Virus record (IMG/VR): IMGVR_UViG_3300035703_000059
Span: 11,407 to 75,406 of that record
Direction: 5' to 3' (one strand)
Source of the DNA: a virus
Length of the DNA stretch: 64,000 nucleotides
Positions 1-24,922 of the stretch are shown here, piece by piece. The position numbers and the translations under genes are program-made. Position 1 is the stretch's first letter. Each line of letters begins with the position of its first letter. The notes beneath the pieces were generated by a model. The model ran no database searches, had not been told where the DNA came from, and saw only the letters and a program-made list of their open reading frames with translations.

Positions 1-361
1 CCCGAACTCGGCGCTCGCGGTGCGCTACACGCGCGACCACCCGACCGTCGACCTCTTTCCGTCGAACGAACTGCTGGACCGTCTCCCCGCAGAGGACTGC
101 GACGGGATGGTGGTGCGGCTCGGCGCGCTTCTGCGGGCCATTGGATTCCACGTTCGCACGCGCATTGTGGCGCCGGCCGGAAAGCCGAAACAATGGGCGC
201 ACATCTATCTGATGGTCGCGCCTGTGCCGGGTGTCGCCGACGGATGGTTGCCGCTGGACCCGACGGAGCCGGAGCGCGCGTATCGTGCGCGAAACGCGCC
301 GTTTTGGGAGCCGGGAACGGACCAGATCGATCCGCTGAAACTGGACGGGCCAATCATCTAA
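1..361 (+). CDS. Transglutaminase-like Cys-His-Asp protein (candidate virion maturation protease), 5'-truncated
   Basis: Motifs RYTRD, EDCD (Cys), WAHIY (His), WLPLDPT (Asp); frame is open to the window edge. Confidence 0.75.
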   Translation, partial: PNSALAVRYTRDHPTVDLFPSNELLDRLPAEDCDGMVVRLGALLRAIGFHVRTRIVAPAGKPKQWAHIYLMVAPVPGVADGWLPLDPTEPERAYRARNAPFWEPGTDQIDPLKLDGPII

Positions 362-380
362 GACAACAGGGAGTCCGCGC

Positions 381-701
381 ATGGCCGACAACGGTGAGAA
401 GTTGGAGGGACTGCTCGACGAACGGTATCGCCCGTCGTTTCGACTGATGGTTGGAATGGGCGTAGGGGTGGGCGTGCTGACGTTCCTCATCAGCCAAGCA
501 GAGGCGTTCGTCGAGGCGCGCATCGATAAGCGGGTGCTGGCGGGGAACGCGCTGGTGGAGATTCAGACCAAGCGACTTGAGAAGGTGGAGTACCGGGTCG
601 ACGAGGTTCGCGAGGCGGTGATGGAGATTCGCGCCGACGTGCGGACCTTGCGCGAGTCGCGAAACGTCCCGCCGCCGCCGGCCATCCGAAAGGCGGAGTA
701 G
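381..701 (+). CDS. Single-TM coiled-coil membrane protein
   Basis: GGGAG RBS; TM LMVGMGVGVGVLTFLI; heptad-like C-terminus; N-terminal LEGL motif. Confidence 0.7.
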   Translation: MADNGEKLEGLLDERYRPSFRLMVGMGVGVGVLTFLISQAEAFVEARIDKRVLAGNALVEIQTKRLEKVEYRVDEVREAVMEIRADVRTLRESRNVPPPPAIRKAE

Positions 702-704
702 CCG

Positions 705-1910
705 ATGTCGTGTGAGGTCGTCGCCGGAGAAGCCGCAGACGGTTCCGTCGTGTTGACGGACAATCAATGCCGCACGCTCGACATTCAGAACGTGCTGGCG
801 TTGTCCGACGGGGCCGGAAACCACGCGGCCTGCGGCTCCAAGGCGTGCGTCTACGAGACGAGCGACCCGTCCACGCTGGTCAAGGTGACGAGCGATTGGA
901 TGGACGTGTGGGCGCTGAAAAAGACGGCCGGGATGGCGGACGTCGTTCCCGTGAAGCGGATGTTCAAGCTGAAGGGGAAGCGGCGTTCGGTGAACGGAGT
1001 GGCCGAGAACGCGCTGTACGCCATCGAGGTCGCCCGCGCGCAGCCGCTATCGAAGCGCGACGAGTTGTTCCTCAACACGACGGCGTTCGACGCGATCACG
1101 CTCTACTTCGACCAGATGCTCCTCCCCGGCGTCTCGCCGAAGAGCGTCATTGATTTTCGCGAGTCGTGTCGAAAGACGGTGGATGCGGCGCGGCGCGGCG
1201 GGAAGCCGTACATGACGACGCCGCAGGCCGACCAAGCGGCGTGCGAGGCCGTGACGAGCGACGCGCTCGATGCGGTGGAGCGGATGGCGAAGCGCGGCGT
1301 CTACTTCACCGACGCCCACGCGGGAAATTGGGGCCGGTACAACGGGCGGCTGGTGGCGCTCGATCTTGGGCTTTCAGCACCGCGAGGGACACGGACCCCG
1401 AAGGTGCCAGAACTTGAAGGGATGGGCGCGATGAACGACCGGAAGATGCAAAACATGGTGCTGTTCGGCGCGGGCGCGCTGATTCTGTTCCTGCTTCTGC
1501 GGCCGAAGAAGGCCAAGGCGGAGACGTCGCTGCCCGGCAGCGGCACCGGCAGCGGGGAGTCGATCTCGTCGCTCGGCGAGCGGCCCATCGCGCTCGACCC
1601 CGCGTTCGCGAGGGCTTACGGCCCCGTCAAGGCGTACACGGTTCGCCGGGGTGACAGCCTGTCGAGGATCGCCCAGCGCGAGTTTATGACTGAGGAACTG
1701 TGGCCGTTCCTGTGGGACATCAACCGGACGGCGACGCAGTTCGCGGTTCCCGATGCGCTGGAAATCGGCCAGACCATCTACGTCCCGACGCGAGGCTCAA
1801 CGAATCGGGCATACTACACGCGGTTCGACGCGCACAAGACGTGGTACATGAGCGGCGGTCGCGGTGTTCCGCCGGAGTCTGTTTCTTCGTTCACCGTCAT
1901 CGCGCTCTGA
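705..1910 (+). CDS. Protein-kinase-like domain - TM - LysM fusion
   Basis: GSKACVY..LVKVT, DAHAGNW, ALDLG kinase-fold motifs; TM MVLFGAGALILFLLL; LysM YTVRRGDSLSRIA..LEIGQTIYVP. Confidence 0.75.
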   Translation: MSCEVVAGEAADGSVVLTDNQCRTLDIQNVLALSDGAGNHAACGSKACVYETSDPSTLVKVTSDWMDVWALKKTAGMADVVPVKRMFKLKGKRRSVNGVAENALYAIEVARAQPLSKRDELFLNTTAFDAITLYFDQMLLPGVSPKSVIDFRESCRKTVDAARRGGKPYMTTPQADQAACEAVTSDALDAVERMAKRGVYFTDAHAGNWGRYNGRLVALDLGLSAPRGTRTPKVPELEGMGAMNDRKMQNMVLFGAGALILFLLLRPKKAKAETSLPGSGTGSGESISSLGERPIALDPAFARAYGPVKAYTVRRGDSLSRIAQREFMTEELWPFLWDINRTATQFAVPDALEIGQTIYVPTRGSTNRAYYTRFDAHKTWYMSGGRGVPPESVSSFTVIAL

Positions 1911-1921
1911 GGAGTTGGCCC

Positions 1922-4016: not shown

Positions 4017-4026
4017 GGAGTCATCG

Positions 4027-4272: not shown

Positions 4273-5754
4273 ATGGCACAGGTTCAGCTTGAAGAACTGA
4301 TTTACGCAGAGAGTCTCGACAACAGCGCGGGTCCGCAATACGATCTTCCGCTGCTGAGTGTGGACATCGGTCCCGCGACGTGGGTCGGCACGATGGGTGA
4401 CGGCAGCGTGACGCCGCTGTCCAAGTATTTTGCCGCGCAGCTTCAGCGGGCGGCGGCTCTCGTCAACCCGTCCGACGCGCTGCCCTTGTTCAAGGCGTTG
4501 GTGAGCATCCAGACGCTCAAGAACGGCCAGCCTACCCCGGCGGTGGGCGGAAGCTCGGTTGGCAGCGTCGTGACGTTCTACGCCACGATTCCGGCCGCGT
4601 ACATCGGGTCGTTCGTGTGGGGCATGACGCCCGACTCGACCGGCGGCTGGGCGCTTCCCGGTGGAGGAGCGGCTGGTGGCGGCGGTGGCGGAGGGGGTGC
4701 GCCGAGTGGTCCCGCTGGCGGCGTGCTGGACTACGTTGAAATCGATGGCGTCACGAACCCCTCGACCTACCCCAACCCGAACGGCCTTGCGGTGGTGGTG
4801 GACGACGGCGGCGGCGTTTGGCGAATCCCCGTTCGCAACAACGATCCGGGGAAAACCACCTTGGCGATTGGTCCCGACGCAAACAATCCGTTTAGCGGTG
4901 GCACCGAGACTTGGAGTTTCCGAGGGCCGGACGGGGCCGCGACCAACGATCCGCTGATCAATGCCGACGACGGCGTGAAGGCTGAGATTCGCTCTGGTCG
5001 TGGCGGCGATAGTTTGCCGAACGATGTGACGGCGACCGCGAACGGCGGCGCCGGGGCGGAACTTTACGTTTGGGCCGGCGACGGTGGTCAAGGCGGTGGT
5101 GGTGGTGGCGCTGCGGGCGGTGGCGGTGGCGTAACTGTGCGCGCCGGATATGGCGGCCCCGGAGGCGCGGGTGTCGCTGGCGGGCCACCCGGTGACGGCG
5201 GTGACGCGGGGATTACCGCCGGATACGGCGGCACCGGGTCCGCTACCCATCCAGCAGGAAAAGGCGGTCGGCTTCTTCTCTACGCTGGTGACGCCGGAAG
5301 CGACGTCGGTGGCGGCGTTGGAGCCGGTGGGAATGTCATCATCAAGGGCGGTAATCGGTCTGACAACGGCGCCGCCGGGAACAACGGCCGAATTTTGCAC
5401 GACTCCGTTTCGTCTTTCGCGGCGCTTCAAAGCGTCAACATCACCGCCGTAACGACTCAGTTCGGGTTCGTGAACAGCCCGGTCATCGCCATCGACAGCG
5501 ACGCGGCCTACGTCATGGCCCCGGCCGGCAAGCTGATCGAGGACGGAAGCGAGGACGGCGACACCGTGACGATCCAGAACGTCGGCATCTTCGCGATCAC
5601 GCTTCAAGGTGAGGCGACGTCTGCCGGCTCGAACCTTCTGATCGGCGGCGGATCATCGAGGCAGCTCAGCCCCAACGGCGGAAACATCACGCTGCGATGG
5701 TCCGACAATTTCACCAAGTGGATCGAGATCGCCTTCGCGGGGTCTGTGACCTAG
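4273..5754 (+). CDS. Glycine-rich fibre/receptor-binding-like protein
   Basis: AGGAG RBS; repeated (hydrophobic)x-AG-x-GG units and poly-Gly tracts; beta-rich C-terminal domain. Confidence 0.6.
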   Translation: MAQVQLEELIYAESLDNSAGPQYDLPLLSVDIGPATWVGTMGDGSVTPLSKYFAAQLQRAAALVNPSDALPLFKALVSIQTLKNGQPTPAVGGSSVGSVVTFYATIPAAYIGSFVWGMTPDSTGGWALPGGGAAGGGGGGGGAPSGPAGGVLDYVEIDGVTNPSTYPNPNGLAVVVDDGGGVWRIPVRNNDPGKTTLAIGPDANNPFSGGTETWSFRGPDGAATNDPLINADDGVKAEIRSGRGGDSLPNDVTATANGGAGAELYVWAGDGGQGGGGGGAAGGGGGVTVRAGYGGPGGAGVAGGPPGDGGDAGITAGYGGTGSATHPAGKGGRLLLYAGDAGSDVGGGVGAGGNVIIKGGNRSDNGAAGNNGRILHDSVSSFAALQSVNITAVTTQFGFVNSPVIAIDSDAAYVMAPAGKLIEDGSEDGDTVTIQNVGIFAITLQGEATSAGSNLLIGGGSSRQLSPNGGNITLRWSDNFTKWIEIAFAGSVT

Positions 5755-5780: not shown

Positions 5781-6182
5781 ATGGCGTCGTGTCCGGTCAT
5801 CCGCAAAGAGTTTCAGCGCCTCACGAACATGAGCGCCGCTGAGATTCGGTCGTGGGCGAAGGATGACCGGGCGAAGTGCTTTTCGCAGAAGGCAACGCGG
5901 CGACGGCTCACGCAGCCCTCAATCTATCGAGGGCATCGTGTGCCGTCGCTCGCGAACCTTCGCAAGCGCGCCTTCACGGGGGCGTGGTCGGAAGAGGACT
6001 GCTGGTACGGGAACATCGTCAACGGGTTCAACAAGCGGTTCTTGAAGATGAAGCAGAAGCACGGCTGTACGGACGGGATCGTCGTCGCGCTGCGGAATTG
6101 GGGCCACCAGCCGAAGTCGTGCGCGGTCCCGACGAAGAAATGCAAGCGCGAGCATGAGCCGCGCGTATCGAAGAAGGGATGA
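5781..6182 (+). CDS. DUF3140-like basic protein
   Basis: F..LTNMSAAEIRSW and LRNWGHQP match the recalled NM..E...W / L.NWGHDP signature. Confidence 0.55.
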   Translation: MASCPVIRKEFQRLTNMSAAEIRSWAKDDRAKCFSQKATRRRLTQPSIYRGHRVPSLANLRKRAFTGAWSEEDCWYGNIVNGFNKRFLKMKQKHGCTDGIVVALRNWGHQPKSCAVPTKKCKREHEPRVSKKG

Positions 6183-6186
6183 GGCC

Positions 6187-7101
6187 ATGACGCGGCTTGA
6201 GGCACAGCGGGATGTCGAGACGGCGCAGCTACAAGCGGAGGCGAAGTATCAGTCCCTTCTGAACCAGCAACGCACGGCGGGACGCAGGGCTGTCGCAGCG
6301 AGCAAGGTGTCCGCGATCAAGACGAACCTCATCGATGTCGCGGAGAAGGCACAGAAGGCGGTGCTGGACTCCGAGAAGCTGATCGCGGGCAACATCGGCA
6401 CCTACGGCATCGCCAGCGGAGCGCTTCGTCGGGAGATCGAGAACAACATCGCCTACGCCAAGCGGTTCACGACGTTGTTCGTGCAGGCCGCGCGGGACTT
6501 CAAAGAAACGGGGCAGTTTTTCCGGGTGGCAGGGTCGTCGCGCGATCCGGCGGGCCTTACGGTCGTGGGCGACCAGTTCAACAGCGGCACCTTGCTTGCG
6601 AACTACGTTGACTTGACCTACGCGACGTCGGTGGCTCTCGGCGCGCAGGGCGACTCGTTGCAGGGCGGCGTCATCACCAACCTGTTCCCGAACTTGACCG
6701 ACGCCGTGGCGGTGCCGCTGATGAAGGGTGTCGCGGGGCTGTGGGACGTCGTCAAGACGCTGGGGCAGGCCGGCGTCGATATGGCACAGTTCCTCGCCGA
6801 CATTCTCAAGAAGCTGCCGAAGATTGGCGGGTTCGCGCTCGATTGGCTTCCGTGGGTGCTGGCGGTCGTGATCATCGGCCCGCCGCTCATTCGCATCATT
6901 CTCGCGGGTCGTCGGCGCGGTGCAGACGCGGCGCTGGAAGAGACAGGCGCGACGTTGACTGAGGGGCGCGAGGCGATCACCAGCGGCGCGCGAAAGGCGG
7001 GGTCGATGGCCGTTCGCGGGGGCAAGGTGGCGGCGGCGGCCTACACCGGAAATCCCGCGCTTGCAATCTCTGGATTGTCGAAACGCGCACGTCGCCGGTA
7101 A
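6187..7101 (+). CDS. Helical membrane protein (putative virion)
   Basis: Coiled-coil N-terminus, TM WLPWVLAVVIIGPPLI, C-terminal ISGLSKRARRR. Confidence 0.65.
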   Translation: MTRLEAQRDVETAQLQAEAKYQSLLNQQRTAGRRAVAASKVSAIKTNLIDVAEKAQKAVLDSEKLIAGNIGTYGIASGALRREIENNIAYAKRFTTLFVQAARDFKETGQFFRVAGSSRDPAGLTVVGDQFNSGTLLANYVDLTYATSVALGAQGDSLQGGVITNLFPNLTDAVAVPLMKGVAGLWDVVKTLGQAGVDMAQFLADILKKLPKIGGFALDWLPWVLAVVIIGPPLIRIILAGRRRGADAALEETGATLTEGREAITSGARKAGSMAVRGGKVAAAAYTGNPALAISGLSKRARRR

Positions 7102-7110
7102 AGTGAAAGA

Positions 7111-7440
7111 ATGGCCTACGGCGCTCGTCAGAACTTGATGATTCGGTCCTATCTGCTCATCGCGGCGAAGCTCGGTGGGTGGACGAAGGACGCGGGAGCC
7201 GATGGCGCGGCCTACGTCTCGCCGGCACAGAATCCCAACCGGGAAAAAGGTGGGGTGTGTCGGAACTGTGCCTTCTGGAACGGGTCCGACGGGTGCGCGA
7301 TTGTGAAGGGGCCGATTGCCGCCGAAGGGCTGTGCAAGCTGTGGGTCATCGATGAGTCGCGGCTGGGGGCCGGGCGCGTCGATGGCCGTCTCGCCGGTCG
7401 ACCGATGTCGCTTGAGGTCGTGCCGCCCAAACGTCGCTGA
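7111..7440 (+). CDS. HiPIP-like 4-Cys protein
   Basis: Y-x12-CRNCAFW-x5-CAIVKGPIAAEGLCKLW matches the HiPIP C-x2-C..C..G.C..W pattern. Confidence 0.6.
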   Translation: MAYGARQNLMIRSYLLIAAKLGGWTKDAGADGAAYVSPAQNPNREKGGVCRNCAFWNGSDGCAIVKGPIAAEGLCKLWVIDESRLGAGRVDGRLAGRPMSLEVVPPKRR

Positions 7441-7515
7441 AGTGCGAAGCCCCGCCGGTGTGCAGCCGGCGAGGCTTCATTTTGACTCTGCGACGGAGGG
7501 GCGCTCGGTCAAAGG

Positions 7516-7590
7516 TGGCTGGCGGGGTAGGAGTCGAACCTACGGCCACGCGATTAACAGTCGCGCGCTCTGCCTCTGAGCTACCCGCCA
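7516..7590 (-). tRNA. trnN: tRNA-Asn(GTT)
   Basis: Minus strand TGGCGGG-TAGCTCAGAGGCAGAGC-GCGCGACTGTTAATCGCG-TGGCC-GTAGGTTCGACTCCTAC-CCCGCCA-G-CCA: full cloverleaf, U1-A72, G73, encoded CCA. Confidence 0.95.
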
Positions 7591-7600
7591 ATCGATGCCG

Positions 7601-7629
7601 TTCCTACCGGCGTTCGCCGCTTCCGTCAA
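7601..7629 (-). promoter_or_regulatory. Putative sigma-70 promoter of the tRNA
   Basis: TTGACG-N17-TAGGAA ending 10 nt before the tRNA 5' end. Confidence 0.45.
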
Positions 7630-7649
7630 GAGCGGGTAAACTGCCCGCC

Positions 7650-8093
7650 ATGCCGGTTCAACGTGTCAGCGGACAAGCGTTCGGGGGGATCGTGGACGAC
7701 GCGTTGCGCGCGGTCGTTCCGCAGGCGGTGACGCGCGTCGAGTTTCGTACCTCGCTCACGCCGCCGTCGACCATCGCCACGACGGAGTCGATTCTGGCGG
7801 CGATGATTCGCGGCGACACCGCCGAGAACGCGCCTCCGCCGACGACGGCCGCCGAGAGAGCAGAGCCGTCATACTCGGCGTCGCAGAAGTTCTTTGCGGC
7901 ACTCAAGCCGACCTTCATGGTGGAGTCGCCGACGTTCGGGCGGCGTATCTACGCGCCCTACGGCGTGGCCGGACCAAAAGATTTCGTTCGTGGGCAGCGG
8001 ACCTTCATCGGCGGCCTCGTCGTGATGTCGCTGGGCCTTGTGGGCCTCGGCTACGCGCTTGGCTATGCCGTGGGCCGCACGATGCCCCGCTAG
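7650..8093 (+). CDS. C-terminally anchored membrane protein
   Basis: C-terminal TM FIGGLVVMSLGLVGLGYALGYAV. Confidence 0.6.
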   Translation: MPVQRVSGQAFGGIVDDALRAVVPQAVTRVEFRTSLTPPSTIATTESILAAMIRGDTAENAPPPTTAAERAEPSYSASQKFFAALKPTFMVESPTFGRRIYAPYGVAGPKDFVRGQRTFIGGLVVMSLGLVGLGYALGYAVGRTMPR

Positions 8094-8133
8094 ATTTTTC
8101 GCGTGCGGTGGACGCGCGCAACAGGAGTCGTCG

Positions 8134-8802
8134 ATGGCGAAAGGCATGAAGTCGGAGGCGGAGCGTCGCGCCGGGTGGCTCGCGAAGCAGCAGAAGTTCG
8201 CGGAGGCCATCGCGAAGCAGCGCGCGATGCGCGACTTCCAGTTTCCCGAAGACCGTCCGCCGCTTCGGCAGGACTCGCTCGTCAAAGGGGAGCGGCCGGA
8301 GGCTCTGCGTAGCCCCGGCGTGGCGTACCTGTGCAACTGCGGCCGTGCAGCGCGCGAGGGCGCGTCCTGCGTGTGCGAGGTCGATCCGCGCGTCCTGCGG
8401 CGCGAGGTGAGCAAGACGAACGCGCAGCGGGAGCGCCGTAAGCGGAGCATCGAGCGCAAGCTGCGTGGGTCGAAAATCGGGCAGGAAGAGCGCGCGGATC
8501 TTGAGCGCGAACTCGCCGAGATTCAAGACTTCTACGTCACCGCGCGGAACCGCACGGAGGCGAACCTTGTCGCCGAAGGACGCGTCGCGGGCAAGAAGGC
8601 CGGGCCGCGTCAGAAGAAGCTGAAGGGCAAGCTGGAGGCGAAGACGGTGGCGCCGGGCGTCGTTCGCCGGACGCGCGTGGACGGGCTTGAGGCGGTGGGC
8701 GACCGGGGCGTCATCAGCATTTGGACGCTGGGTTCCATCTTGCTCATCGGCGTGGGCGTCTACGCGGTTTACAGCACGTTCCAGAAAGAGCCGAAGGCGT
8801 AA
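8134..8802 (+). CDS. Basic protein with CxC..CxC motif and C-terminal TM
   Basis: AGGAG RBS, TCGATG start; CNC..CVC; VDGL motif before the TM. Confidence 0.65.
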   Translation: MAKGMKSEAERRAGWLAKQQKFAEAIAKQRAMRDFQFPEDRPPLRQDSLVKGERPEALRSPGVAYLCNCGRAAREGASCVCEVDPRVLRREVSKTNAQRERRKRSIERKLRGSKIGQEERADLERELAEIQDFYVTARNRTEANLVAEGRVAGKKAGPRQKKLKGKLEAKTVAPGVVRRTRVDGLEAVGDRGVISIWTLGSILLIGVGVYAVYSTFQKEPKA

Positions 8803-8805
8803 TCG

Positions 8806-9498
8806 ATGGCCGCATTGGCGAATGAGCGCGTCCTCATCATCGGCGACTCGATCACCGTCGGGTCGTTCGGTTCACGCTTGGAGCGGCGCTTCAAAGACGA
8901 GGGCGCGACCGTCAAGCGCGACGCGAAGAGCGGGCGCGCGACGACGTGGTTCTACGCGGACGCGGGCAAGCTGGACGCGGGCCGATTGCCCGGCCTCGCG
9001 GCGTTCAATCCGACGACGGTCATCATCGCGCTGGGGACGAACGATGCGGGGATGTTCACGACGAACGTCGAGCGCGCCAAGAGGTTCTTCGGCAAGGTGA
9101 TCGCCGACCTGCGTGACAACGCGGCGGCTCCGCCGACGTTCTGGTGGGTGACGGCGCCGGCCTTCGACTCGCGCGCGAAGAACGTGGACGCGTCGTGGAT
9201 CGACGCGCAGATTCGCGCCGTTTCGCCGCTGTTCGACAACGTCATCGACGCGCGTGCGCTGACGAGCGATATGACGGCGAAATCGGATGGGCGCACGTCC
9301 GACCTCATCCACTTCACGACGAACGGCGGCGCGCGGTACGCCGACCGCGTGTTCGATGCGTTCATGCAGAAGCGCGGAAAGACGCCCGACGTGGCGCCCC
9401 CGAAGCTGCCTTCGAAGGTCGAGCCGATGACCGTGGGTCTGTTCGTGGCGGCGGCCCTCATCGCTTACGCGGTGTGGGTGTCGCGGAGGCGCGGATGA
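8806..9498 (+). CDS. SGNH/GDSL hydrolase with C-terminal membrane anchor
   Basis: IIGDSIT, SG, ALGTND and DLIH blocks; C-terminal TM followed by RRR. Confidence 0.85.
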   Translation: MAALANERVLIIGDSITVGSFGSRLERRFKDEGATVKRDAKSGRATTWFYADAGKLDAGRLPGLAAFNPTTVIIALGTNDAGMFTTNVERAKRFFGKVIADLRDNAAAPPTFWWVTAPAFDSRAKNVDASWIDAQIRAVSPLFDNVIDARALTSDMTAKSDGRTSDLIHFTTNGGARYADRVFDAFMQKRGKTPDVAPPKLPSKVEPMTVGLFVAAALIAYAVWVSRRRG

Positions 9499-9974
9499 AG
9501 CGGGTCTGCCTGCCCGTGCGGAACAAGAAGGGCGTGTGCGCGCGTGTCGATGCCGAAACAGCCAAGTGGGCGAAGGCGATGACGTGGCACGTCCACAAGG
9601 GGTACGTCGCGACGACGCTCGGCAGCGGGAGCGAGGCGCAGCGGCTCTACCTGCATCGATTACTGGTGCCGACGGACGAGGCCGTGGTCGACCACAAGAA
9701 CGGCGACCGTCTCGATAACCGGCTCGGCAATCTGCGTCCGGCGTCCACCTCGCAGAACGGCGCGAACGTCTCGCGGCTGTCGACGAACAAGTCGGGATTC
9801 AAGGGCGTCGTGAAGCACGGTCGAAAGTTCCGCGCCTACGTTCACAAGAGCGGACGGACGCAGTACCTCGGCACGTTCGACACCGCGAAAGAGGCGGCGT
9901 GCGAGTACGACCGGAACGCAAAAAAGCTGTTTGGGCGATTCGCCAAGACGAACAAGGTCAAGTGCGGCGACTGA
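9495..9974 (+). CDS. HNH endonuclease with AP2 DNA-binding domain
   Basis: LHRL..VDHKNGDRLDNRLGNLR..SQN; NKSGFKGV..YLGTFDTAKEAACEYD. Confidence 0.9.
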   Translation: MKRVCLPVRNKKGVCARVDAETAKWAKAMTWHVHKGYVATTLGSGSEAQRLYLHRLLVPTDEAVVDHKNGDRLDNRLGNLRPASTSQNGANVSRLSTNKSGFKGVVKHGRKFRAYVHKSGRTQYLGTFDTAKEAACEYDRNAKKLFGRFAKTNKVKCGD

Positions 9975-10661: not shown

Positions 10662-10742
10662 GTCAACCCCTACACGCCCCCACATTGACTTTCGAAGATG
10701 AACTTCGAAAGGATGGGGGCAGCAGAAAGAAGGAGACACCCC

Positions 10743-12093: not shown

Positions 12094-12209
12094 GTCTCCC
12101 CGACCATCGATTCCCCCGTCGATGGGGGCGCGAGCCGTCAATCCTCACGGATTGGCGGCTTTCGCCTTTGTGGGGTATGCTCGCCGCGACTCACCCGTAA
12201 GGAGACTCC

Positions 12210-12782: not shown

Positions 12783-12793
12783 GGGGAAAAACC

Positions 12794-15225: not shown

Positions 15226-15236
15226 GGAGAATCGAT

Positions 15237-16544
15237 ATGGCTAACAATCGTCGAAACGTGGTCCCCAGCCAGATTGCCCCCCAGCTTATGCAGATGCGCG
15301 ATCTGTCTGCCGGCAACGACATCTACCGTCAGTCGCGCCGCGCCGTCGAGGCGATGGCCGCGCTGGAGCGTCGGCGTCAAATTCTGACGTCGAAGGGCTA
15401 CGTCTCTGAGGCGGGCCGCACGTTGCAGGGCATGGCGGATGTGTTCGCCGCCGCTCCGACGCTGCCGGAACTGGAGAACGCGATCAAGCAGCTTCTCCCC
15501 GACGGCTCCATCGTCAGCGGTCGCGAGTATTACGACCGCATCCAGAAGCAACTGAACCCGGTCTGGTACAACGGCGGCTACTCCCGCCCCTCGGACTTCA
15601 ACGAGTTCGTCAAGCAGAACCTCAAGGTGACGAACTACCCGGCCGAGTACCAGCCCTACGTCATGCCGGGCGTGCAGGCCGCGTCGTACTTCTACGTCAC
15701 GCAGCAGGCGCAGAAGGCCGGTTCGGCTCTCAGCGGCTTCAGCCCCGCTCCGCGCAGCGTCGTCGAGGGCGCGCGCATGGAGGAGCAGGCGCGCAAGAAG
15801 GCTGTGGCGCTGATGGCGCTCGCGGGCCTTGGGCGAATCGGTAAGGGCGTTGAGCGTTGCTGGGGATTCAACTGCCCCGACGAGACGGGTGACTTTGAGT
15901 TCACGGTTCCCGCGTCGATTGTGAATTCCAAGCTGACGGGCATCGATTACTTGAAGATGAACACGTCATGGATGTCGGGGACGGCGGGATGCCAGACCGA
16001 AATCACCAATAAGTCCGGCGGCAAGGTGTTCGGCCTCGCCATCGATGACGGCGACTCAAACAGCTACAACAACGCCAACGCGATCCGTCGAGTGAAGGCC
16101 GCCGCCGTCGCGCAGGCGCTCTACAAGGTGGGCGGCGAGGCGTACTTGACGCTTCCCAACCTCTACACCTATGGCGCCATGAAGGCGCATGACGTGCGAG
16201 AGCTTGAGCAGCTTATCCGCACCTATGGTACGGCAGACCGGATTGCAGCCAGCGCACAGAAACCGCCCGACACGTTGTTCGGGGACGGGTCGAGTTCTCG
16301 GTCGAGTAGCTGTAAATTCGACATGGGTAAGATGCCCTCGCTGGACGACGTGGCGAAGGTTTGGGACACCGTTTCGTCGCGGATTCCCGGCGGCGGCGGA
16401 GAGGTGACTCCTCCTCCGGGCGGCGACACGCCTCCCCCCGACGACGAGGAGAAGGGCGGGATCGATGCGCTGACGATGGTCGGCGTCGTCGGCGTCCTCG
16501 CCCTCGGCGGCATCGCGCTCTACTTCGCGCGCCAGAACCGATAG
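15237..16544 (+). CDS. C-terminally anchored virion protein
   Basis: AAGGAG RBS; LQGM, LSGF and LAGLG motifs; Pro/Gly linker and C-terminal TM. Confidence 0.75.
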   Translation: MANNRRNVVPSQIAPQLMQMRDLSAGNDIYRQSRRAVEAMAALERRRQILTSKGYVSEAGRTLQGMADVFAAAPTLPELENAIKQLLPDGSIVSGREYYDRIQKQLNPVWYNGGYSRPSDFNEFVKQNLKVTNYPAEYQPYVMPGVQAASYFYVTQQAQKAGSALSGFSPAPRSVVEGARMEEQARKKAVALMALAGLGRIGKGVERCWGFNCPDETGDFEFTVPASIVNSKLTGIDYLKMNTSWMSGTAGCQTEITNKSGGKVFGLAIDDGDSNSYNNANAIRRVKAAAVAQALYKVGGEAYLTLPNLYTYGAMKAHDVRELEQLIRTYGTADRIAASAQKPPDTLFGDGSSSRSSSCKFDMGKMPSLDDVAKVWDTVSSRIPGGGGEVTPPPGGDTPPPDDEEKGGIDALTMVGVVGVLALGGIALYFARQNR

Positions 16545-16824: not shown

Positions 16825-17412
16825 GTGGCCGAAACTCGTCGATTTTCACAGGCCAACGACTTCGGATTCGTCAACCGTCAAGACGACGAGGTGATGTGCG
16901 CCGCAAGCGGCGCCGTGCCGTATCGGACGGTCTGCCAAGTCATCGATGACGCGGCGATCTACTACGCAACCGCCGGGGAAGGCGCCCTGCTCGACATCCG
17001 GCGCTGGTACAGCCAAAGCCCCGAATTCTTCCCCGGCTCGTTCCTCCCGGCGGGCGCGATTCCGGCGTTCTACCGGGCGATTCTGGCGCGTGCGTTTTTC
17101 GCCGAGTTTGGCGGCGCGAACTTCGTCCCGACGCTTCGGCAGATGATCGTCGTGCTGAACATGGTCGAGGAACCGCGCGGGCGTGAGGACGACTACGCCA
17201 AGACGCGGACGGCGGTGAAGGCGATCCTCGGCGTGTGCGAAAAGACGTTCAACGGACAGCCCGCGTGCAGTCCGGGGGAAATATCGTGGGCCGCAGAGCG
17301 GATGAACGCCCTTGATCGGGCAGAAACCGCCGGCCCCGGCGTCAACATGATGCTCATCGCCGTTCCGGCGCTCTTGTTTGCGGGCGCGCTGCTGCTTCGG
17401 CGGCGCGGGTAG
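16825..17412 (+). CDS. C-terminally anchored protein
   Basis: GTG start with GGGAG; 4 Cys; TM followed by RRRG. Confidence 0.7.
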   Translation: MAETRRFSQANDFGFVNRQDDEVMCAASGAVPYRTVCQVIDDAAIYYATAGEGALLDIRRWYSQSPEFFPGSFLPAGAIPAFYRAILARAFFAEFGGANFVPTLRQMIVVLNMVEEPRGREDDYAKTRTAVKAILGVCEKTFNGQPACSPGEISWAAERMNALDRAETAGPGVNMMLIAVPALLFAGALLLRRRG

Positions 17413-17421: not shown

Positions 17422-19521
17422 ATGGCCGACAACGAGAACACCACACCGCCGGGATTCGTCAGCACCTTTCCCGTGTTCGCTGAGTGCGATTCCATTCTGC
17501 GCGCAACGCGGGAGGGCATCGGTCTTTTGACGGGTGGGGAAGAGGGCAGGCGCCGGGTCGATGTGAAGTACCTTCGATGCCAGCTTCTCACGCAGAGCCG
17601 GACCGAACTTGGAGATCGGTCGCTGCTCCAGTTTCCGCTGTGGTGGGACTGCCGGCCGACGAGCGGCACCTTCGATCCGGGTGACGTTTTGCGGCGGGCC
17701 TACGCAAAATACACGCAGAAAGACCCCAACTCTGCGGACATCGGATTCATCGCAGGCATCCTTCGCGAGATCGACGACCTTCAAGAGGGGGGCGGCTCCA
17801 GCGAGGACCGGGCCAACTACGAGGGAAACGCGGGTTCGTACACCATCATTCAGAACCTCCTGCTGGCCCTCTCCGACTTCCCTCGGCAGGGGTCGGACGG
17901 ACGCGCGAACCTTGAGACAATCGTCGATTTGTCGCTGCGCGTGACCGACTCGATCAAAGACATCATCGTCAAAGCGTTTCCGGCGGCGGGCGGCGTCGGC
18001 GACAACGTCGTCCGCATCCTCAAGATTTTCCTCGACGGCATCTTCTACATGGGTGACGCGGTCGCCGAGGAGAAGGCGCTGCGGACCGAGATGGCCTCGC
18101 GGCTAATCTCCGACGAACGCGTGACGAACGTCGGCGGCGGCTACGAGAAGTTCTACGGCAACCGGCCATCGATGATCACGACCCGGTCGTGGTGCGCTGC
18201 CGGAAACGCTGCGCGCGACAACTACCTCGCCCCCGGAACGAACGGCGCGTACCTTCGGGCGAAGACCCGATACGATGACGCGCGGCGGTTCTTGGACACG
18301 TTCGCCGCGATGCTTGAGCGGACGCAGGGCGAGTCGACGCCGAAGACGCGCGAGCGGGTATTCGCACGATTCCAGCTAATCGGAAGCTGGATGCTGGCGT
18401 ATGCCGCCGACGAGGTATGGCTGTCGGATTACATTACCTACGACACCATCTTCGACCGCCTTCGATTGTCGGCGGCAGACGCGGTCGTGAAGGTGACGTT
18501 TGAGCCGAGGCTCATCGAGTTCAAGCGCCTCTACCCGTATTCGGCGCGGGCGGCGACTCGTCTTGAGTGCGATTACCCCGACTGCGACACGGATTTCTGG
18601 ATTCCGTTTTGGGCGGACACGAAAGCCGGAAACTGGAATCTGAAAACCGGAACTGCCGACATCGGTGTGACGGAAAAGGCGATCAGAGACGCGACGAACA
18701 TCACCTTCGACTTTTACGCCACCGCGATTCCGAAGCGAAGCGTGACCGGGCGCCGGTACAACAGCTACAAGTCGAAGTCGGTCGTGGACGTGTCGCTTAC
18801 GGTCATGCCGCTTGTGAACACGCTGTATGAGTGGGCGCGAGCCGCTGCCCCTACATGGGGGAAGATTAAGCAATACAATCTGATCCGTTACGCGCTGACC
18901 GGGTACGCGACCGGCGCCGTCAAAGACTTCGGCGAGTACGCGAAGAACCGCATCGATGTCTACGACCCGGCGTTTCGCCAGAGGTTCATCGACACCCCGC
19001 TGACGTGGCAGCAGATCGCGCTCTACATCATCGCCGGGCGCACGGACCTTGGGCCGCAGCCGAGGCCGGAAGAGTTCAACGTCGCGGCGACGCGGTGTCC
19101 CGGCGGCTCGTCGGACACGTCCTGCCTGCCCTGCGAGAAGATCAAGAATCGGCGCCCCATCGGCGCACGGGAAGTCCAAATCCCGATGCTCGTCGGCTAC
19201 ACGCCGCCTCTGGCGACGTTCGTCGGCAGCACGAACTATCGGGGTTCGGTGGAGTACGCGGCGTGGCGAAAGGCGCTCGTCGATGCGGGTTATCCGGGGT
19301 ACTACATCGACTGCATCGAACGTGACGTGACGTGGGTGTCCTCGCGGGCTGGCGAGGTGATTTCGGTTCGTCCGCCGCCGCCGCTCGTCGTCAGTCTACC
19401 GCTGGCCGCTGTGCCGAAGCCCCGCGCGGTGCGGACGTCGGACATTCCCGAACTCACCGGAATCACCCGGCCGCTCGTCGCCGAGATCGCGGGGCCGATG
19501 CTGCCTCGAAGGACTCGATAA
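17422..19521 (+). CDS. Large hypothetical protein (699 aa), putative virion/entry protein
   Basis: Long ORF in the structural operon; no family recognised. Confidence 0.7.
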   Translation: MADNENTTPPGFVSTFPVFAECDSILRATREGIGLLTGGEEGRRRVDVKYLRCQLLTQSRTELGDRSLLQFPLWWDCRPTSGTFDPGDVLRRAYAKYTQKDPNSADIGFIAGILREIDDLQEGGGSSEDRANYEGNAGSYTIIQNLLLALSDFPRQGSDGRANLETIVDLSLRVTDSIKDIIVKAFPAAGGVGDNVVRILKIFLDGIFYMGDAVAEEKALRTEMASRLISDERVTNVGGGYEKFYGNRPSMITTRSWCAAGNAARDNYLAPGTNGAYLRAKTRYDDARRFLDTFAAMLERTQGESTPKTRERVFARFQLIGSWMLAYAADEVWLSDYITYDTIFDRLRLSAADAVVKVTFEPRLIEFKRLYPYSARAATRLECDYPDCDTDFWIPFWADTKAGNWNLKTGTADIGVTEKAIRDATNITFDFYATAIPKRSVTGRRYNSYKSKSVVDVSLTVMPLVNTLYEWARAAAPTWGKIKQYNLIRYALTGYATGAVKDFGEYAKNRIDVYDPAFRQRFIDTPLTWQQIALYIIAGRTDLGPQPRPEEFNVAATRCPGGSSDTSCLPCEKIKNRRPIGAREVQIPMLVGYTPPLATFVGSTNYRGSVEYAAWRKALVDAGYPGYYIDCIERDVTWVSSRAGEVISVRPPPPLVVSLPLAAVPKPRAVRTSDIPELTGITRPLVAEIAGPMLPRRTR

Positions 19522-20325
19522 ATGGACACCCCCATCTACAAGCGCGCATGGTTCTGGGTCGTCGTCGGTGGGGCGATTCTCCTCGCCATCCGCCGCAAGC
19601 AGGTCGAACTGACCCCTCCGCCGAAGCTGCCGGGGCCGGAGGTCGCGCCTCCGTCGGGGTCGGCGTCGATTGACCCGTTCCGCACGACGAACCTGTCGGC
19701 CGAGCAGGAGCGCGCGTTCATCGCCGCCCTGCCGAGAGCCGGCCAGCAGTACGGCGCGCTGTTCGCACAGGCGGGTCGCGAGAAGGGCATCTCGCCGCTC
19801 TTGCTCGCGGCCATCTGCGAGACGGAGACGTACTACGGCGAGGCGGCGGCGTGCAAAGGCAAGGGTCCGGCCTGCGAGGGAACGCTCGCCGACGACTTCG
19901 GCCTCATGCAGATCAACAGCAAGGCGCACCCGGAGTTCTTCAAGCGAAGCGTCAACGGCACGCCCGCGTGGAAGGTGCCGCTGGAAAACATCCGCTACGG
20001 TGCCGAGGTCTGGAACTCGTCGCTCGCATCGATGCGCGGGCGTCCGAACTCCAGCGGCAAGGTCGACGTCGGCGCGCGGCGAGCCGCGCAGCTTCTCGTC
20101 AAGCCGGGCAAGTACCCCGACCCGCGTCCGATGGACATCGATCTCGCACGCTGGGCCGCGACTTCGGGCTACAATGCAGGACCGATGGCGGCAATCATCG
20201 CGGTGGCGGCGGACAGGTCGCCGGACGCCGTGACGCACGGCAGCAAGTACGGCAAGACGGTTCTGGACAAGCTGGGGAGAATCTTCAACAAGACGGTCGA
20301 GAACTTGAACCGGGGAGCACAATGA
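19522..20325 (+). CDS. Membrane-anchored lytic transglycosylase (SLT family)
   Basis: N-terminal TM; AAICETET (catalytic E), GLMQIN, GYNAG. Confidence 0.85.
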   Translation: MDTPIYKRAWFWVVVGGAILLAIRRKQVELTPPPKLPGPEVAPPSGSASIDPFRTTNLSAEQERAFIAALPRAGQQYGALFAQAGREKGISPLLLAAICETETYYGEAAACKGKGPACEGTLADDFGLMQINSKAHPEFFKRSVNGTPAWKVPLENIRYGAEVWNSSLASMRGRPNSSGKVDVGARRAAQLLVKPGKYPDPRPMDIDLARWAATSGYNAGPMAAIIAVAADRSPDAVTHGSKYGKTVLDKLGRIFNKTVENLNRGAQ

Positions 20326-21521: not shown

Positions 21522-21532
21522 GGGAGATACCG

Positions 21533-21823: not shown

Positions 21824-21832
21824 GGCGCATCG

Positions 21833-22150
21833 ATGACTCTCCTCGCCATCCTCGCCATCGGATTCGCCGCCGCCGGCCTCGCGCTCGTCGTTCGCGCGCT
21901 CGTCCCGACGCTGTGGCTCCTCATCAAGCCGTTCTCCTGCGACCTCTGTATGTCGTGGTGGGGGTCGGTGGTGTTCACGCTTCTCGCCGGGGAGTGGTCC
22001 GTGGACGCGCTGACGGGCCTGTTCGGAGGCGTCGCAGTCTCGGTCGCGATGCTGAAGGTCGTCTCTTCGTTGTCCGATGTGGGCGCCGCGCCCCCGCCCA
22101 CGTTGTCGGATTCCCCCGACTTGGGCGATACTTTTCCCGAAAAGGAGTGA
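21833..22150 (+). CDS. Membrane CxxC protein (DUF1360-like)
   Basis: Three hydrophobic helices with KPFSCDLCMSWW. Confidence 0.65.
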   Translation: MTLLAILAIGFAAAGLALVVRALVPTLWLLIKPFSCDLCMSWWGSVVFTLLAGEWSVDALTGLFGGVAVSVAMLKVVSSLSDVGAAPPPTLSDSPDLGDTFPEKE

Positions 22151-22154
22151 CCCC

Positions 22155-23000
22155 ATGTTCTCTTCCGGCAATCCCGAACTGATGTCCGCCCTCGCCGGCA
22201 TCGCGCGCCTCGGCGCCGCGCCGAGCGTGACCAAGCGTGCGAAGAAGCTGCCCGCAGAAGCGCGCGCGGAGTTGAGGTCGATTCAGAAGCGGTTTGCCGA
22301 TGATCGCAAGGCCGCCATCGAAGCGCTGTTCGCGAAGTACCCCGCAGCGAAGATGCTGTCGCCGAAGGAGATGAGCGAGATTCGGCAGGTCGTCGATCTC
22401 TTCATCCTCAACGACGACTCCAAGGTGACGTCGTCGGGCGTGCAGTCGGACGGCGGCATGACGCTCAAGGTCGGCGGCAAGGTCGTCGCCGAGCGCAAGG
22501 CTCCGTACTCCCGATTCATGCGCGTCTGTGCCGGCGAGTTCGGTGCGGATATGACCAGCCGCCGCGCGGCGAACGCGCTGCTCGACGCGCTGGGCGCGGG
22601 CCTCTCGTTCCGTGACCGCGACGGTCGCGCGTTCATCACCCCGAAGGGGCGCGGCGCCGGTCGTCTGGTGTCCGAGTCGGCGTGCCACACCGTCGAGGTC
22701 AACGCTTCGATGCGTAACCGCGCAGTCGCCAACGTGAACCGCGCCATCCGCGAAGCCGGTCTGGACATCCAGCGGTTCGCCATGCCGACCGAGGGCGCAT
22801 CGGCGACGTCGCCGGTGCAGCGCGCGGTCGCGGCTCGCGAGGCGACGGCTGCGGCCGAGCGCGCAGCGGTGGCCGAGGCGTATCGTGGAAGTCAGTCGGC
22901 GGCGGCGCAGTACGAGTCGATGGTTTCGCGCCCCACCAAGCGTCAGCAGGCTGCACGGAAGGCGGCGGCGACCCGCCGTCGGAACGCGTCGCGTCGATAG
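22155..23000 (+). CDS. Basic Ala/Arg-rich protein (core-like)
   Basis: AAGGAG RBS; LAGI motif; C-terminal AARKAAATRRRN. Confidence 0.7.
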   Translation: MFSSGNPELMSALAGIARLGAAPSVTKRAKKLPAEARAELRSIQKRFADDRKAAIEALFAKYPAAKMLSPKEMSEIRQVVDLFILNDDSKVTSSGVQSDGGMTLKVGGKVVAERKAPYSRFMRVCAGEFGADMTSRRAANALLDALGAGLSFRDRDGRAFITPKGRGAGRLVSESACHTVEVNASMRNRAVANVNRAIREAGLDIQRFAMPTEGASATSPVQRAVAAREATAAAERAAVAEAYRGSQSAAAQYESMVSRPTKRQQAARKAAATRRRNASRR

Positions 23001-23069: not shown

Positions 23070-23258
23070 ATGGCTGCAAAGCGTCCGAAGAAGGTGATGG
23101 CGAAGATCAAGGGCAAGAAGATGGAGTGCAAGCTGAACTGGAAGGGCAAGGATCCCAAGAAGAAGCCGAAGGCGTCCTGCAAGCCCGTCGTCGCCAAGAA
23201 GGCCTCCAAGAAGAAGGCCTCCAAGAAGAAGAGCAGCAAGAAGTCGAGCAAGAAGTAA
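23070..23258 (+). CDS. Very Lys-rich histone-H1-like protein
   Basis: GGAGG RBS; KKASKKKASKKKSSKK; Cys pair. Confidence 0.75.
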   Translation: MAAKRPKKVMAKIKGKKMECKLNWKGKDPKKKPKASCKPVVAKKASKKKASKKKSSKKSSKK

Positions 23259-23341: not shown

Positions 23342-23677
23342 ATGGAACCGACACCGTTCACAGGCAGCTTGACGTTCGATCACGTTCTCGCGTTTCTCGG
23401 CGCGCTGGTGCCGCTGATGAGCGCGCTCGCGGCGTTCCTCAACCACAAGGTCCGCGTCAGCGGGACGGCGTCGCCGTTCCTGCTCAACGCGGCGGCGGCG
23501 GTGAACGTGCTGGCCGTCAACGTCGACAAGGCGACCCAGCTTGCGAAGCTCGCACGCGGTCTGCCGGTGCCGTCGACTCCCGCACCGGCGGCTCCCGCCG
23601 TGGTGGACGTCGGCGCAGCGGCCGTTGAGCCGGCGCCTGCGGGTCAGCCGGAAGTGTGTCCGACGTGCGGGCGCTAA
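23342..23677 (+). CDS. Putative holin-like membrane protein
   Basis: GGAGG-AATCG-ATG; two hydrophobic helices; ends CPTCGR. Confidence 0.5.
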   Translation: MEPTPFTGSLTFDHVLAFLGALVPLMSALAAFLNHKVRVSGTASPFLLNAAAAVNVLAVNVDKATQLAKLARGLPVPSTPAPAAPAVVDVGAAAVEPAPAGQPEVCPTCGR

Positions 23678-23937
23678 TCGCGTCGGTGGTGACGGGGCTG
23701 GTCGTCGCGCTTTCGACGGCTGCCCTGTTCCTGCTCCGCGTCATCCCTCGCCGGGACGAGGAGCAGCGTCAGCGGGCGGAGGCATTGGCCGCCGACCTGC
23801 GGCGGAAGATCGAGGAAGCCAAGGCCGCTCGCGCGGCGGCGGTCGCGCAGCAGGTCGCGGTGGTGACGCAGGCCGGCGAGGCGGACAAGAGCGCCGACTC
23901 CGTGGGCGTCGCGAACCGAATCATCGGAGGCTCGTGA
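23656..23937 (+). CDS. N-terminal TM plus coiled coil (spanin-like?)
   Basis: TM followed by a helical domain; start uncertain. Confidence 0.45.
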   Translation: MSDVRALIASVVTGLVVALSTAALFLLRVIPRRDEEQRQRAEALAADLRRKIEEAKAARAAAVAQQVAVVTQAGEADKSADSVGVANRIIGGS

Positions 23938-24158
23938 TGCAGAACCAGAAGAACACCCAGCTTGTTCGCATGGCCGACGTGTTCGTCATCGGCCCGCTGA
24001 TGACCTACGGCGGACTCCGCATGATGAAGAGCGGCGAGAAGCTGCTCGGCCTCACGCTCGCGGCGTTCGGTCTGGCGACCGTCGTCTATAACGGCGTGAA
24101 CTACATCGATATGAAAGAAGCGCTCGACCGAGAGGACCGCATCGATGGGCCGATTTGA
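23937..24158 (+). CDS. Small two-TM protein
   Basis: GGAGG RBS, TGATG overlap; DVFVIGP..VYNGVNY. Confidence 0.6.
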   Translation: MQNQKNTQLVRMADVFVIGPLMTYGGLRMMKSGEKLLGLTLAAFGLATVVYNGVNYIDMKEALDREDRIDGPI

Positions 24159-24594
24159 GTGGGTCTTGATCGCGCTGTACGGCGCGCTCCTCGCGTGGAT
24201 TCCGATGTGCCACGACGCGCGCGCCGACGAGGCGTGCCGGGCAGTCGGCGACACCGTCGTCTGCCAGCGCGCGGGGTTCGACACGCTCGTCGACAAGTGC
24301 GTGGACGCCGACACGCGGGCCAAGGTCTGCTCGATCAATCTCTTTGAGGCGGTCCGCCAGCGCGACGAGTCGCGCGCGGCGTTCGACGCCTGTGCGGCAG
24401 CGCCGCGCCCCGTGCCTCCGCCCCCGCCGGAGCCGTCCCGGCGTCCGCTGGTGGCCGTGGCCGTCGCTGCGGCAGGTGCGGCGGCTGTCGCCCTGTCGGC
24501 GACGCTCGACGTGCCTGTGGGCGCCCGTGCGGCCCTCGCAGGGGCCGGCGTGCTGGGCATGGGCGCGGGTGTCGGCCTCGCGGTGGCGTGGTAG
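24145..24594 (+). CDS. Cys-containing membrane protein (lysis accessory?)
   Basis: N-terminal signal, Cys-containing helix, Pro linker, two C-terminal TMs. Confidence 0.55.
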   Translation: MGRFEWVLIALYGALLAWIPMCHDARADEACRAVGDTVVCQRAGFDTLVDKCVDADTRAKVCSINLFEAVRQRDESRAAFDACAAAPRPVPPPPPEPSRRPLVAVAVAAAGAAAVALSATLDVPVGARAALAGAGVLGMGAGVGLAVAW

Positions 24595-24640
24595 GCTCGC
24601 GGGGACACCGCGCAACTGATTGCGCCAACAGGAGTCATCG

Positions 24641-24922
24641 ATGGCAGCCAAGAAGAAGAGGAAGTCCTCGTCGAAACGCAAGATGACGGAGGCGCAGTAC
24701 CGCGCTGCCGTGCGCGCAGGACGTATCGTTCCGGCCAACTACCAAGCGGCCGTGATGGCCGACGTTGATGACGAGTGGAACCGGGCCGTGCGCCGGCAGC
24801 AGGGCGTCGGCGGGCTTACCAGCCCCGACGGCGTCATGGGATTGGCCGTCGGCGCGGTGATCGGAATCGTGGGCGCGCTCCTGTGGAAAGCGTCGAGCGA
24901 CATCGCGAAGAAAGACGCGTAG
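24641..24922 (+). CDS. Basic protein with C-terminal TM
   Basis: AGGAG, ATCGATG; MAAKKKRK; VGGL motif before the TM. Confidence 0.65.
   Translation: MAAKKKRKSSSKRKMTEAQYRAAVRAGRIVPANYQAAVMADVDDEWNRAVRRQQGVGGLTSPDGVMGLAVGAVIGIVGALLWKASSDIAKKDA

Follow-up and report, generated by a model that had tools for sequence, protein, structure and literature searches.

What kind of particle is built by a virus whose long block of virion genes holds no recognisable tailed-phage gene? This question is raised by IMG/VR record IMGVR_UViG_3300035703_000059, of which we analysed a 64,000-nucleotide stretch (the window), corresponding to positions 11407-75406 of a single 75,406-bp contig (G000). The last 127 bases of the contig repeat the first 127, as is usually seen when a viral genome that is circular or terminally redundant has been recovered in full, and the genome is that of a complete temperate double-stranded DNA (dsDNA) virus of ~75.3 kb. 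The GC content is ~65% throughout the contig, and genes were therefore called by third-position GC bias (GC3). Coordinates below are window positions unless marked as contig or L001, the latter being the 11.4 kb upstream of the window. The plus-strand structural block runs from contig position 51 to window position 24922 (~36 kb, ~40 genes), and the minus-strand lysogeny and replication arm begins at 25299. Window positions 1-24922, which the initial annotation had correctly described as a run of co-oriented genes, thus make up about two thirds of the virion-gene arm, the block starting 11.4 kb upstream of the window. Our reading, which we hold to be reasonably probable, is that this is a large, tailless, membrane-containing bacterial virus, probably of a new lineage. 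The identity of its capsid proteins, its icosahedral shape, its membrane, the way it is packaged and the absence of a tail are what we infer from the evidence presented here.

Three adjacent plus-strand genes are central to this reading. The initial annotation had pointed to three neighbouring open reading frames (ORFs) of 190-212 residues at 11458-13432, and these were present as described: g031 (11458..12093, 211 residues), g032 (12210..12782, 190 residues) and g033 (12794..13432, 212 residues). Each is a candidate capsid protein; g031, a single jelly-roll protein and the most conserved protein of the virion block, could be a major or a penton capsid protein, g033 is likewise a single jelly-roll protein, and g032 is its paralog and predicted partner. 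The paralogy of g032 and g033, also claimed at the outset, was confirmed by BLASTP (30% identity, E = 6e-11) and by hhalign of g032 against the g033 family (probability 97.9% over 177 columns). The claim of three single jelly-roll paralogs did not survive. No sequence kinship of g031 to g032 or g033 was detectable, including by hhalign of g031 against the g033 family, and g031 belongs to a separate, larger superfamily that comprised 141 clusters at 50% identity in an exhaustive profile search, its distant members lying on short contigs and carrying no names.

We collected 15 related loci from IMG/VR and metagenome scans, and the order of the trio was identical in every related locus covering it (13-15 metagenome loci). 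The g031 protein was 57-89% identical in 13 related loci, with a mean column identity of 75%, and g032 was 38-56% identical in 14 loci, a tally that leaves out a 15th row (L017) lying on that locus's g033 homolog. For g033 there were 122 homologs at 50% identity or more, none of them named, on contigs of up to 79 kb. Neither g031 nor g033 had a homolog among 50,697 GenBank phage records, and IMG/VR scans with g033 alone, P0135 and P0160 returned no match. A complete genome for comparison was that of the relative G001, 85,791 bp long with terminal repeats and scored 100% complete by CheckV. Common to the four genomes compared (G000-G003) were the trio, a DUF5872-like protein and the replication/lysogeny core; g001, g011 and g044 were also common to one or two of the relatives. 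Within the structural arm, conservation was highest in the trio, which comprises the only conserved capsid-like genes, and its large neighbouring ORFs were unconserved: g016, g018, g034, g035 and g038 are not family-wide, and large ORFs nonetheless always follow the trio. The family is known from metagenomes only, its genomes are ~66-86 kb long, and it is undescribed; our literature searches turned up no account of a virus group of this kind.

We made structure models for g031 and g033 only, the fold of g032 being taken from its paralogy. The AlphaFold2 (AF2) model of g031, built from a 118-sequence alignment, was a jelly roll with a predicted local distance difference test score (pLDDT) of 94.5 and a predicted template modelling score (pTM) of 0.88. 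Its best structural match by two methods was VP4 of the archaeal virus SPV1 (6oj0; Z 8.0-8.5, root-mean-square deviation 3.2-3.3, 137 of 178 residues aligned), with Foldseek giving E = 5e-4 and probability 1.0. This match, at 12% identity, stood ~1 Z unit above those to PHM (Z 7.0-7.4), followed by the capsid proteins of HHIV-2 (6.9), HCIV-1 (6.8), SH1 (6.6) and P23-77 VP17 (6.5). The AF2 model of g033 was also a jelly roll (pLDDT 80.6); its best match was the non-viral PHM (Z 7.8-8.6), and its viral matches were HHIV-2 (6h82_I, Z 7.4), SPV1 (7.4), HCIV-1 (7.0), SH1 (6.8) and P23-77 VP17 (6.6). The check proposed in the initial annotation, whether these ORFs fold as jelly rolls, thus came out in its favour, by model for the ORFs at 11458 and 12794 and by paralogy for the one at 12210. 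Profile searches of PDB sequences with alignments A1 and A4 found no match to solved capsid proteins; in a BFVD search, various single jelly-roll capsid proteins came up, but only as weak matches (TM no higher than 0.43); and the nearest named protein-language-model neighbours of g031 were the PM2 P2 and PRD1 P3 capsid families, with scores of only 0.76-0.77, which we take as a lead only.

The predicted complex of g032 and g033 scored 0.76, compared to 0.00 for the best control. Of 80 solved complexes, 58 reached this mark, as did 2 of 110 mismatched pairs. Contact agreement between the runs was at least 84%, the partner pLDDT was at least 84, and the interface comprised 176-209 contacts. This modelling supports the notion that g032 and g033 bind each other as a heterodimer. 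The capsid shell would then most likely be formed from three small single jelly-roll proteins. Since g032 and g033 would form a heterodimer of duplicated partners, the two together could act like one double jelly roll, and g031 may supply a second hexon component or the penton.

The second line of evidence comes from the proteins encoded around the trio. Anchors were called by Kyte-Doolittle (KD) hydropathy in a 19-residue window with a threshold of 1.6. By this measure, 18 of the 40 structural-block proteins carry a hydrophobic anchor, but only 4 of the 54 proteins encoded elsewhere in the genome do (Fisher p = 4e-5), and most of the anchors are single and C-terminal. Three of the 18 (g003, g006 and g009) are probably hydrophobic beta strands rather than transmembrane helices, and five further proteins have sub-threshold anchors, C-terminal in g005, g034, g036 and g042 and N-terminal in g039. 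The earlier count of more than 15 membrane-anchored proteins was therefore about right. We envisage the shell as lying on a lipid membrane, in which the 15-20 anchored products of genes around the trio would be held, mostly by their C-termini.

Some of these anchored proteins are cell-wall enzymes or carry cell-wall domains. The 401-residue product of g013 (705..1910, plus strand) has a central transmembrane segment at residue 247 and a C-terminal LysM domain (Pfam E = 1e-5); g024 (8806..9498, plus strand) encodes a GDSL/SGNH esterase (Pfam Lipase_GDSL_2, E = 2e-13) with a C-terminal transmembrane segment (KD 2.03 at residue 208); and g039 (19522..20325, plus strand) encodes a lytic transglycosylase (Pfam SLT, E = 5e-8) with an N-terminal transmembrane segment, making it a candidate entry enzyme of the virion membrane. 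Tethered to the membrane, these three could act at entry. The vertices may be decorated by fibre or spike proteins encoded upstream of the window. Two of these, g003 (L001:3256-4023, contig; 255 residues) and g009 (L001:8521-10746, contig; 741 residues), have their first 90 residues in common (48% identity, E = 5e-19), a module that looks like a virion-attachment domain carrying interchangeable receptor-binding parts. The g009 protein is collagen-like, with GPQ repeats and a long Gly-rich tail, and a further L001 product is a coiled-coil fibre of 683 residues.

A membrane-bearing virus need not be icosahedral. The genome could instead encode an enveloped or pleomorphic particle, or one with a non-icosahedral nucleocapsid, in which the jelly rolls would be surface or matrix proteins. 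The many membrane proteins would fit such a particle, as would the lack of a detected packaging ATPase and the presence of very basic small proteins that could coat DNA. However, the viral proteins nearest in fold to g031 and g033 form the shells of icosahedral viruses with an internal membrane, and the large interface predicted between g032 and g033 resembles that of capsomer subunits. The genome also carries a lytic apparatus (the VanY endolysin and the SLT protein), whereas bacterial and archaeal viruses that are pleomorphic and bud from the cell are, as far as they have been described, released without lysis. On balance we regard such a particle as rather improbable, and an icosahedral shell over a membrane remains our preferred reading.

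We searched the genome for the genes that would identify a tailed phage. No ORF of 250 residues or more in the G000 genome had a Pfam or PHROG match to a terminase, portal, HK97-type capsid, tail tube, sheath or tape measure protein. Nor did the ten large ORFs of G001 that were scanned, or the large ORFs adjoining the trio in four other relatives, match any terminase, portal, HK97, tail-tube, sheath or tape-measure family; and the upstream 11.4 kb held no terminase, portal or capsid module. The second check proposed in the initial annotation, whether an HK97 capsid, terminase or tail module lies on the same contig, thus also came out in its favour by profile search, and the lack of recognisable genes of this kind extends to the G001 ORFs scanned. 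Several candidates were considered and set aside. The PHROG tail-fibre matches of g009 cover residues 98-393, which are the collagen-like GPQ repeats, and a "tail protein" match of g024 covers the esterase domain. As a portal or terminase, g001 was dismissed for want of a Walker A motif and for its low complexity and disordered model, g018 as a Gly-rich repeat protein, and g034, g035 and g038 as unconserved across the family. The g001 protein (L001, 798 residues, low-complexity) had an Atlas model with a pLDDT of 0.51 and found no match in a single-sequence PDB search. The fibre-like proteins of L001 are fibres or spikes and do not demonstrate a tail.

The search for a packaging motor gave a similar outcome. 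There is no Walker A motif in the structural block, and no FtsK/HerA-type packaging ATPase was found in the G000 genome or in G001; the A32/FtsK-HerA ATPase that the initial annotation proposed to look for on the contig was therefore sought and not found. The only three Walker-A proteins of the genome are SbcC-like, Sak4-like (AAA_24) and ParB-like, all with roles in recombination or partition, and each was considered as the motor and rejected: g071 (38090-39757) is SbcC/Rad50-like with a CxxC hook in its coiled coil, g078 (45215-46117) is a full-length Sak4-like AAA_24 protein near an SSB-like gene, and the "Walker A" of g067 sits in a ParB-like protein. Since neither a terminase nor an FtsK/HerA-type ATPase was found, enclosure of the genome without a motor may apply. 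In that case the genome could be enclosed as a protein-condensed core, as in SPV1, perhaps helped by Lys/Arg-rich small proteins. One candidate is g045 (23070..23258, plus strand), a very basic protein of 62 residues, largely Lys, Ala and Ser, whose GC3 of 0.94 is the highest in the genome; it is histone-H1-like in composition and may be a DNA-condensing core protein. Other basic tails occur in g044 and in proteins of G001.

Several observations weigh against a tailless, membrane-containing particle. The fold matches are middling, with non-viral jelly rolls matching equally well or better (PHM Z 7.1-8.6, nucleoplasmin Z 6-7), and therefore the fold alone is no proof of a capsid role. At Z 5-6, the matches also include jelly-roll domains from the cement proteins and tail fibres of tailed phages. 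Sequence profiles can miss a portal or an HK97 capsid protein, and the folded set consisted of g031 and g033. The replication arm is of the tailed-phage type (PolA, Sak4, SNF2 helicase, DUF3987 primase), g009 does match PHROG tail-fibre families, if only over its collagen-like repeats, and the automatic taxonomy of the related clusters is Uroviricota. Also, a 75 kb icosahedral dsDNA virus lacking a packaging ATPase would be unusual.

These points lend themselves to a different explanation, that of a very divergent member of the Caudoviricetes whose HK97 capsid, portal and terminase evade Pfam and PHROG and whose jelly rolls are decoration, cement, tail or baseplate parts. A replication and lysogeny module typical of tailed phages, fibre-like proteins, an endolysin and the Uroviricota assignment are all as expected for such a phage, and the weaker fold matches include the KHP40 cement protein (Z 5.2-5.7), the HFTV1 turret (Z 5-6) and the phage 7-7-1 fibre (Z 5.8). 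This explanation survives because only two proteins were folded. However, the large terminase subunit is usually the most easily detected and most conserved gene of a tailed phage, and no terminase match was found in two complete genomes or several partial ones. There is also no Walker A motif in the structural block, and no large ORF of the block is conserved in the family except g001, which is of low complexity and disordered. Finally, nearly half of the block proteins are membrane-anchored, which is no feature of tailed-phage modules. We therefore consider a divergent tailed phage unlikely, but the more serious competitor to a tailless membrane-containing virus.

If the virus is tailless and has an internal membrane, which known group does it most resemble? 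The best match of g031 is to VP4 of SPV1 (Sulfolobus polyhedral virus 1, Portogloboviridae), which g033 also matches (Z 7.4). In SPV1, small single jelly-roll proteins form a shell around a lipid layer, proteins beneath the capsomers span the membrane, and the circular genome lies in a core in which the DNA is condensed by protein (PMC8459092). The DNA of this core is coated by VP1. The gene functions assigned in SPV1 do not include a packaging ATPase, and none was found in the G000 genome. The differences are considerable. SPV1 has a hyperthermophilic archaeal host (Sulfolobales), a 20 kb genome and no polymerase gene, and it uses one hexamer protein (VP4) and one penton protein (VP10), whereas the G000 virus has a bacterial host, 75 kb, its own PolA, helicase and primase, three jelly-roll proteins and no sequence similarity to SPV1.

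The initial annotation had instead drawn a comparison with SH1, HCIV-1 and P23-77, which together with HHIV-2 belong to the Helvetiavirae (Sphaerolipoviridae, Simuloviridae and Matsushitaviridae). These viruses encode two single jelly-roll capsid proteins in adjacent genes that pair with each other; in G000, g032 and g033 are adjacent, and their fold and pairing are predicted. The jelly rolls of these viruses stand vertically in the shell, and numerous small membrane proteins accompany an internal membrane, for which the 18 anchored proteins among the 40 of the block would be an indirect sign here. Their capsid proteins matched g033 at Z 6.6-7.4 and g031 at Z 6.5-6.9 (HHIV-2, HCIV-1, SH1 and P23-77 VP17). 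In contrast, their FtsK/HerA packaging ATPase, encoded with the capsid genes, was not found in G000, so that one defining feature is missing; the G000 genome is 2.5-4.5 times larger and has a third, unrelated jelly-roll gene; their hosts are halophilic archaea or Thermus; and no sequence or profile similarity to their capsid proteins (VP4/VP7, VP16/VP17) was detected. The fold similarity to Helvetiavirae capsid proteins overall (Z 5.2-7.4) was no higher than that to non-viral jelly rolls, and these comparisons do not support the suggested kinship. We do not count the virus as a member of the Helvetiavirae or the Portogloboviridae.

The inferred architecture, if it holds, would also recall the Tectiviridae and Corticoviridae (PRD1, PM2; Bamfordvirae), which are tailless and have an internal membrane, many small membrane proteins and vertex spikes. 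The virion-associated lytic transglycosylase P7 of PRD1 has a candidate counterpart in the SLT protein g039. These viruses differ in having genomes of 10-15 kb; neither a double jelly-roll capsid protein nor an A32/P9-type ATPase was found in G000, although an FtsK/HerA ATPase defines the PRD1 group as it does the SH1/P23-77 group, and the Pfam P3, P2 and A32 families had no match in the G000 ORFs scanned. With the Caudoviricetes the virus has in common its replication and lysogeny arm (a PolA-UDG fusion, Sak4, an SbcC-like protein, a PD-(D/E)XK nuclease, an SNF2 helicase, a DUF3987 primase and a tyrosine integrase), and it differs from them in having no HK97 capsid protein, portal, terminase, tail tube, sheath or tape measure detectable by profile search.

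These comparisons leave room for a more far-reaching proposal, which we advance tentatively and think doubtful as a whole: that the family is a new lineage of high rank, comprising the largest tailless internal-membrane phages (66-86 kb), with a shell of three single jelly-roll proteins and motor-free, SPV1-like enclosure of the genome, and that it combines the replication module of a tailed phage with a portoglobovirus-like architecture, for which no bacterial counterpart was known before. Under the same tentative proposal, the g032-g033 heterodimer would represent a stage in the evolution of a double jelly roll, and the genome would be condensed by basic proteins and wrapped by the membrane and the shell. 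The known tailless lipid-containing dsDNA viruses of bacteria have, to our knowledge, genomes of ~10-20 kb, and all those described have a packaging ATPase. A widespread family of 66-86 kb with a PolA replisome, three jelly-roll capsid genes and no recognisable motor would, if confirmed, change this picture, as jelly-roll viruses with a membrane would then span a wider range of genome sizes and of hosts. Such a family would offer a bacterial point of comparison for SPV1 and for the transition from single to double jelly rolls, and it would mean that the replication genes of these viruses lead current pipelines to classify them as tailed phages.

The minus-strand arm encodes a tyrosine integrase, a ParB-like protein, an SbcC-like ATPase, PolA with an N-terminal uracil-DNA-glycosylase (UDG) domain, a protein resembling single-stranded DNA-binding protein (SSB), a Sak4-like AAA_24 protein, a helix-turn-helix regulator, a PD-(D/E)XK nuclease, a DNA methylase, an SNF2 helicase and a DUF3987 primase. 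The integrase (25299..26354, minus strand; Pfam Phage_integrase, E = 5e-12), 55-58% identical in G001-G003, lies at the boundary of the structural and the lysogeny/replication arms. Taken with the ParB-like protein and with the fact that jelly rolls are common in non-viral proteins, it might suggest a plasmid or integrative element whose jelly rolls serve a cellular or secreted function. We give this very little credence: no conjugation or plasmid replication genes were seen, whereas an endolysin, fibres, a phage-type replication module and the terminal repeat are all present, the IMG/VR relatives are scored as complete viruses, and all related protein clusters are labelled viral.

The host is indicated to be bacterial because the genome encodes peptidoglycan enzymes and a sigma-70 region-4 protein. 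We found nothing in support of the Myxococcota host suggested initially, the enzymes pointing only to a bacterium. No prophage copy was found in GTDB representative genomes, and a search for exact matches to the viral tRNA-Asn returned none.

The remaining genes of the structural block are described here in order, all on the plus strand unless stated otherwise. In L001, the endolysin combines VanY and PG_binding_1 domains. Within the window, g018 (4273..5754) encodes a 493-residue Gly-rich repeat protein, a candidate spike or fibre for which a similar Gly-rich protein occurs in G001; Pfam, PHROG and a single-sequence PDB search gave no family match. The cluster g020-g023 (6154..8802) includes three transmembrane proteins (g020, g022 and g023, KD 2.0-2.2; C-terminal in g022 and g023) and the small, Cys-rich g021, and homologs of g020-g022 occur in the same order in G001. 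A tRNA-Asn (GTT) gene predicted by ARAGORN (7516..7590, minus strand) lies antisense among these virion genes. A long ORF (7458-8093) reads through the complement of the tRNA, so its true start is probably near 7647. An ORF with an HNH_3 endonuclease domain (9144..9974; Pfam E = 2e-8) lies in the region upstream of the trio that is kept in relatives. Directly upstream of the trio, in G000 as in six related loci and in G001, is g030 (10698..11378), encoding a hydrophobic, Gly/Ala-rich membrane protein of 226 residues.

The first of the variable large proteins after the trio is g034 (13432..15225), a Cys-rich and Ala-rich protein of 597 residues with a C-terminal hydrophobic anchor and no Pfam, PHROG or PDB match; its sequence is unconserved, and ORFs of ~600 residues occupy its position in relatives, in which the trio is followed by ORFs of ~600, ~600 and ~1000 residues. 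It is followed by g035 (15141..16544, 467 residues; C-terminal transmembrane segment, KD 2.17 at residue 444), which is kept only in close relatives, and by g037 (16825..17412, 195 residues; C-terminal transmembrane segment, KD 2.32 at residue 173), which has homologs in the related loci L016 and L022. The 699-residue soluble protein of g038 (17422..19521) is present in the same two loci, absent from G001-G003, and has no Pfam, PHROG or PDB match. In another relative (L018:14494-18816), the third large ORF after the trio encodes 1440 residues with a weak match to SseC-like translocon pore proteins (E = 8e-4), a sequence hint that the variable large proteins may insert into membranes.

Towards the end of the block, a weak thioredoxin-like match (E = 0.0014) was found at 21380-22150 beside a small CxxC membrane protein, in a region that holds several Cys-rich virion proteins; judged by sequence, the thioredoxin-like and CxxC genes may form a virus-encoded disulfide system. 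The 307-residue protein of g044 (22077..23000) has a basic C-terminus and 41-45% identity in G001 and G002, with no family match. The block ends with g046-g049 (23342..24922), four small membrane proteins of 93-149 residues (KD 2.1-2.4) that may be holin-like or virion membrane proteins.

In the replication arm, the family A DNA polymerase fused to an N-terminal UDG-superfamily domain (40730-43381, minus strand) is 58-60% conserved in relatives and at most 26% identical to GenBank phage proteins. The SbcC/Rad50-like ATPase with its CxxC hook (38090-39757, minus strand) is kept in all four genomes at 46-51% identity; no obvious SbcD/Mre11 partner was seen in the G000 genome, and ~1 kb near this gene (36557-37590) has no called gene. 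An N6/N4 DNA methylase gene lies at 54411-55532. The palindrome CATCGATG occurs at 44 sites in the window, for example at 4022, 20524, 21828, 24140 and 30229, compared to 1.27 expected from shuffles (shuffle maximum 6). Many of its sites overlap start codons on either strand, and the palindrome could be a regulatory or methylation motif.

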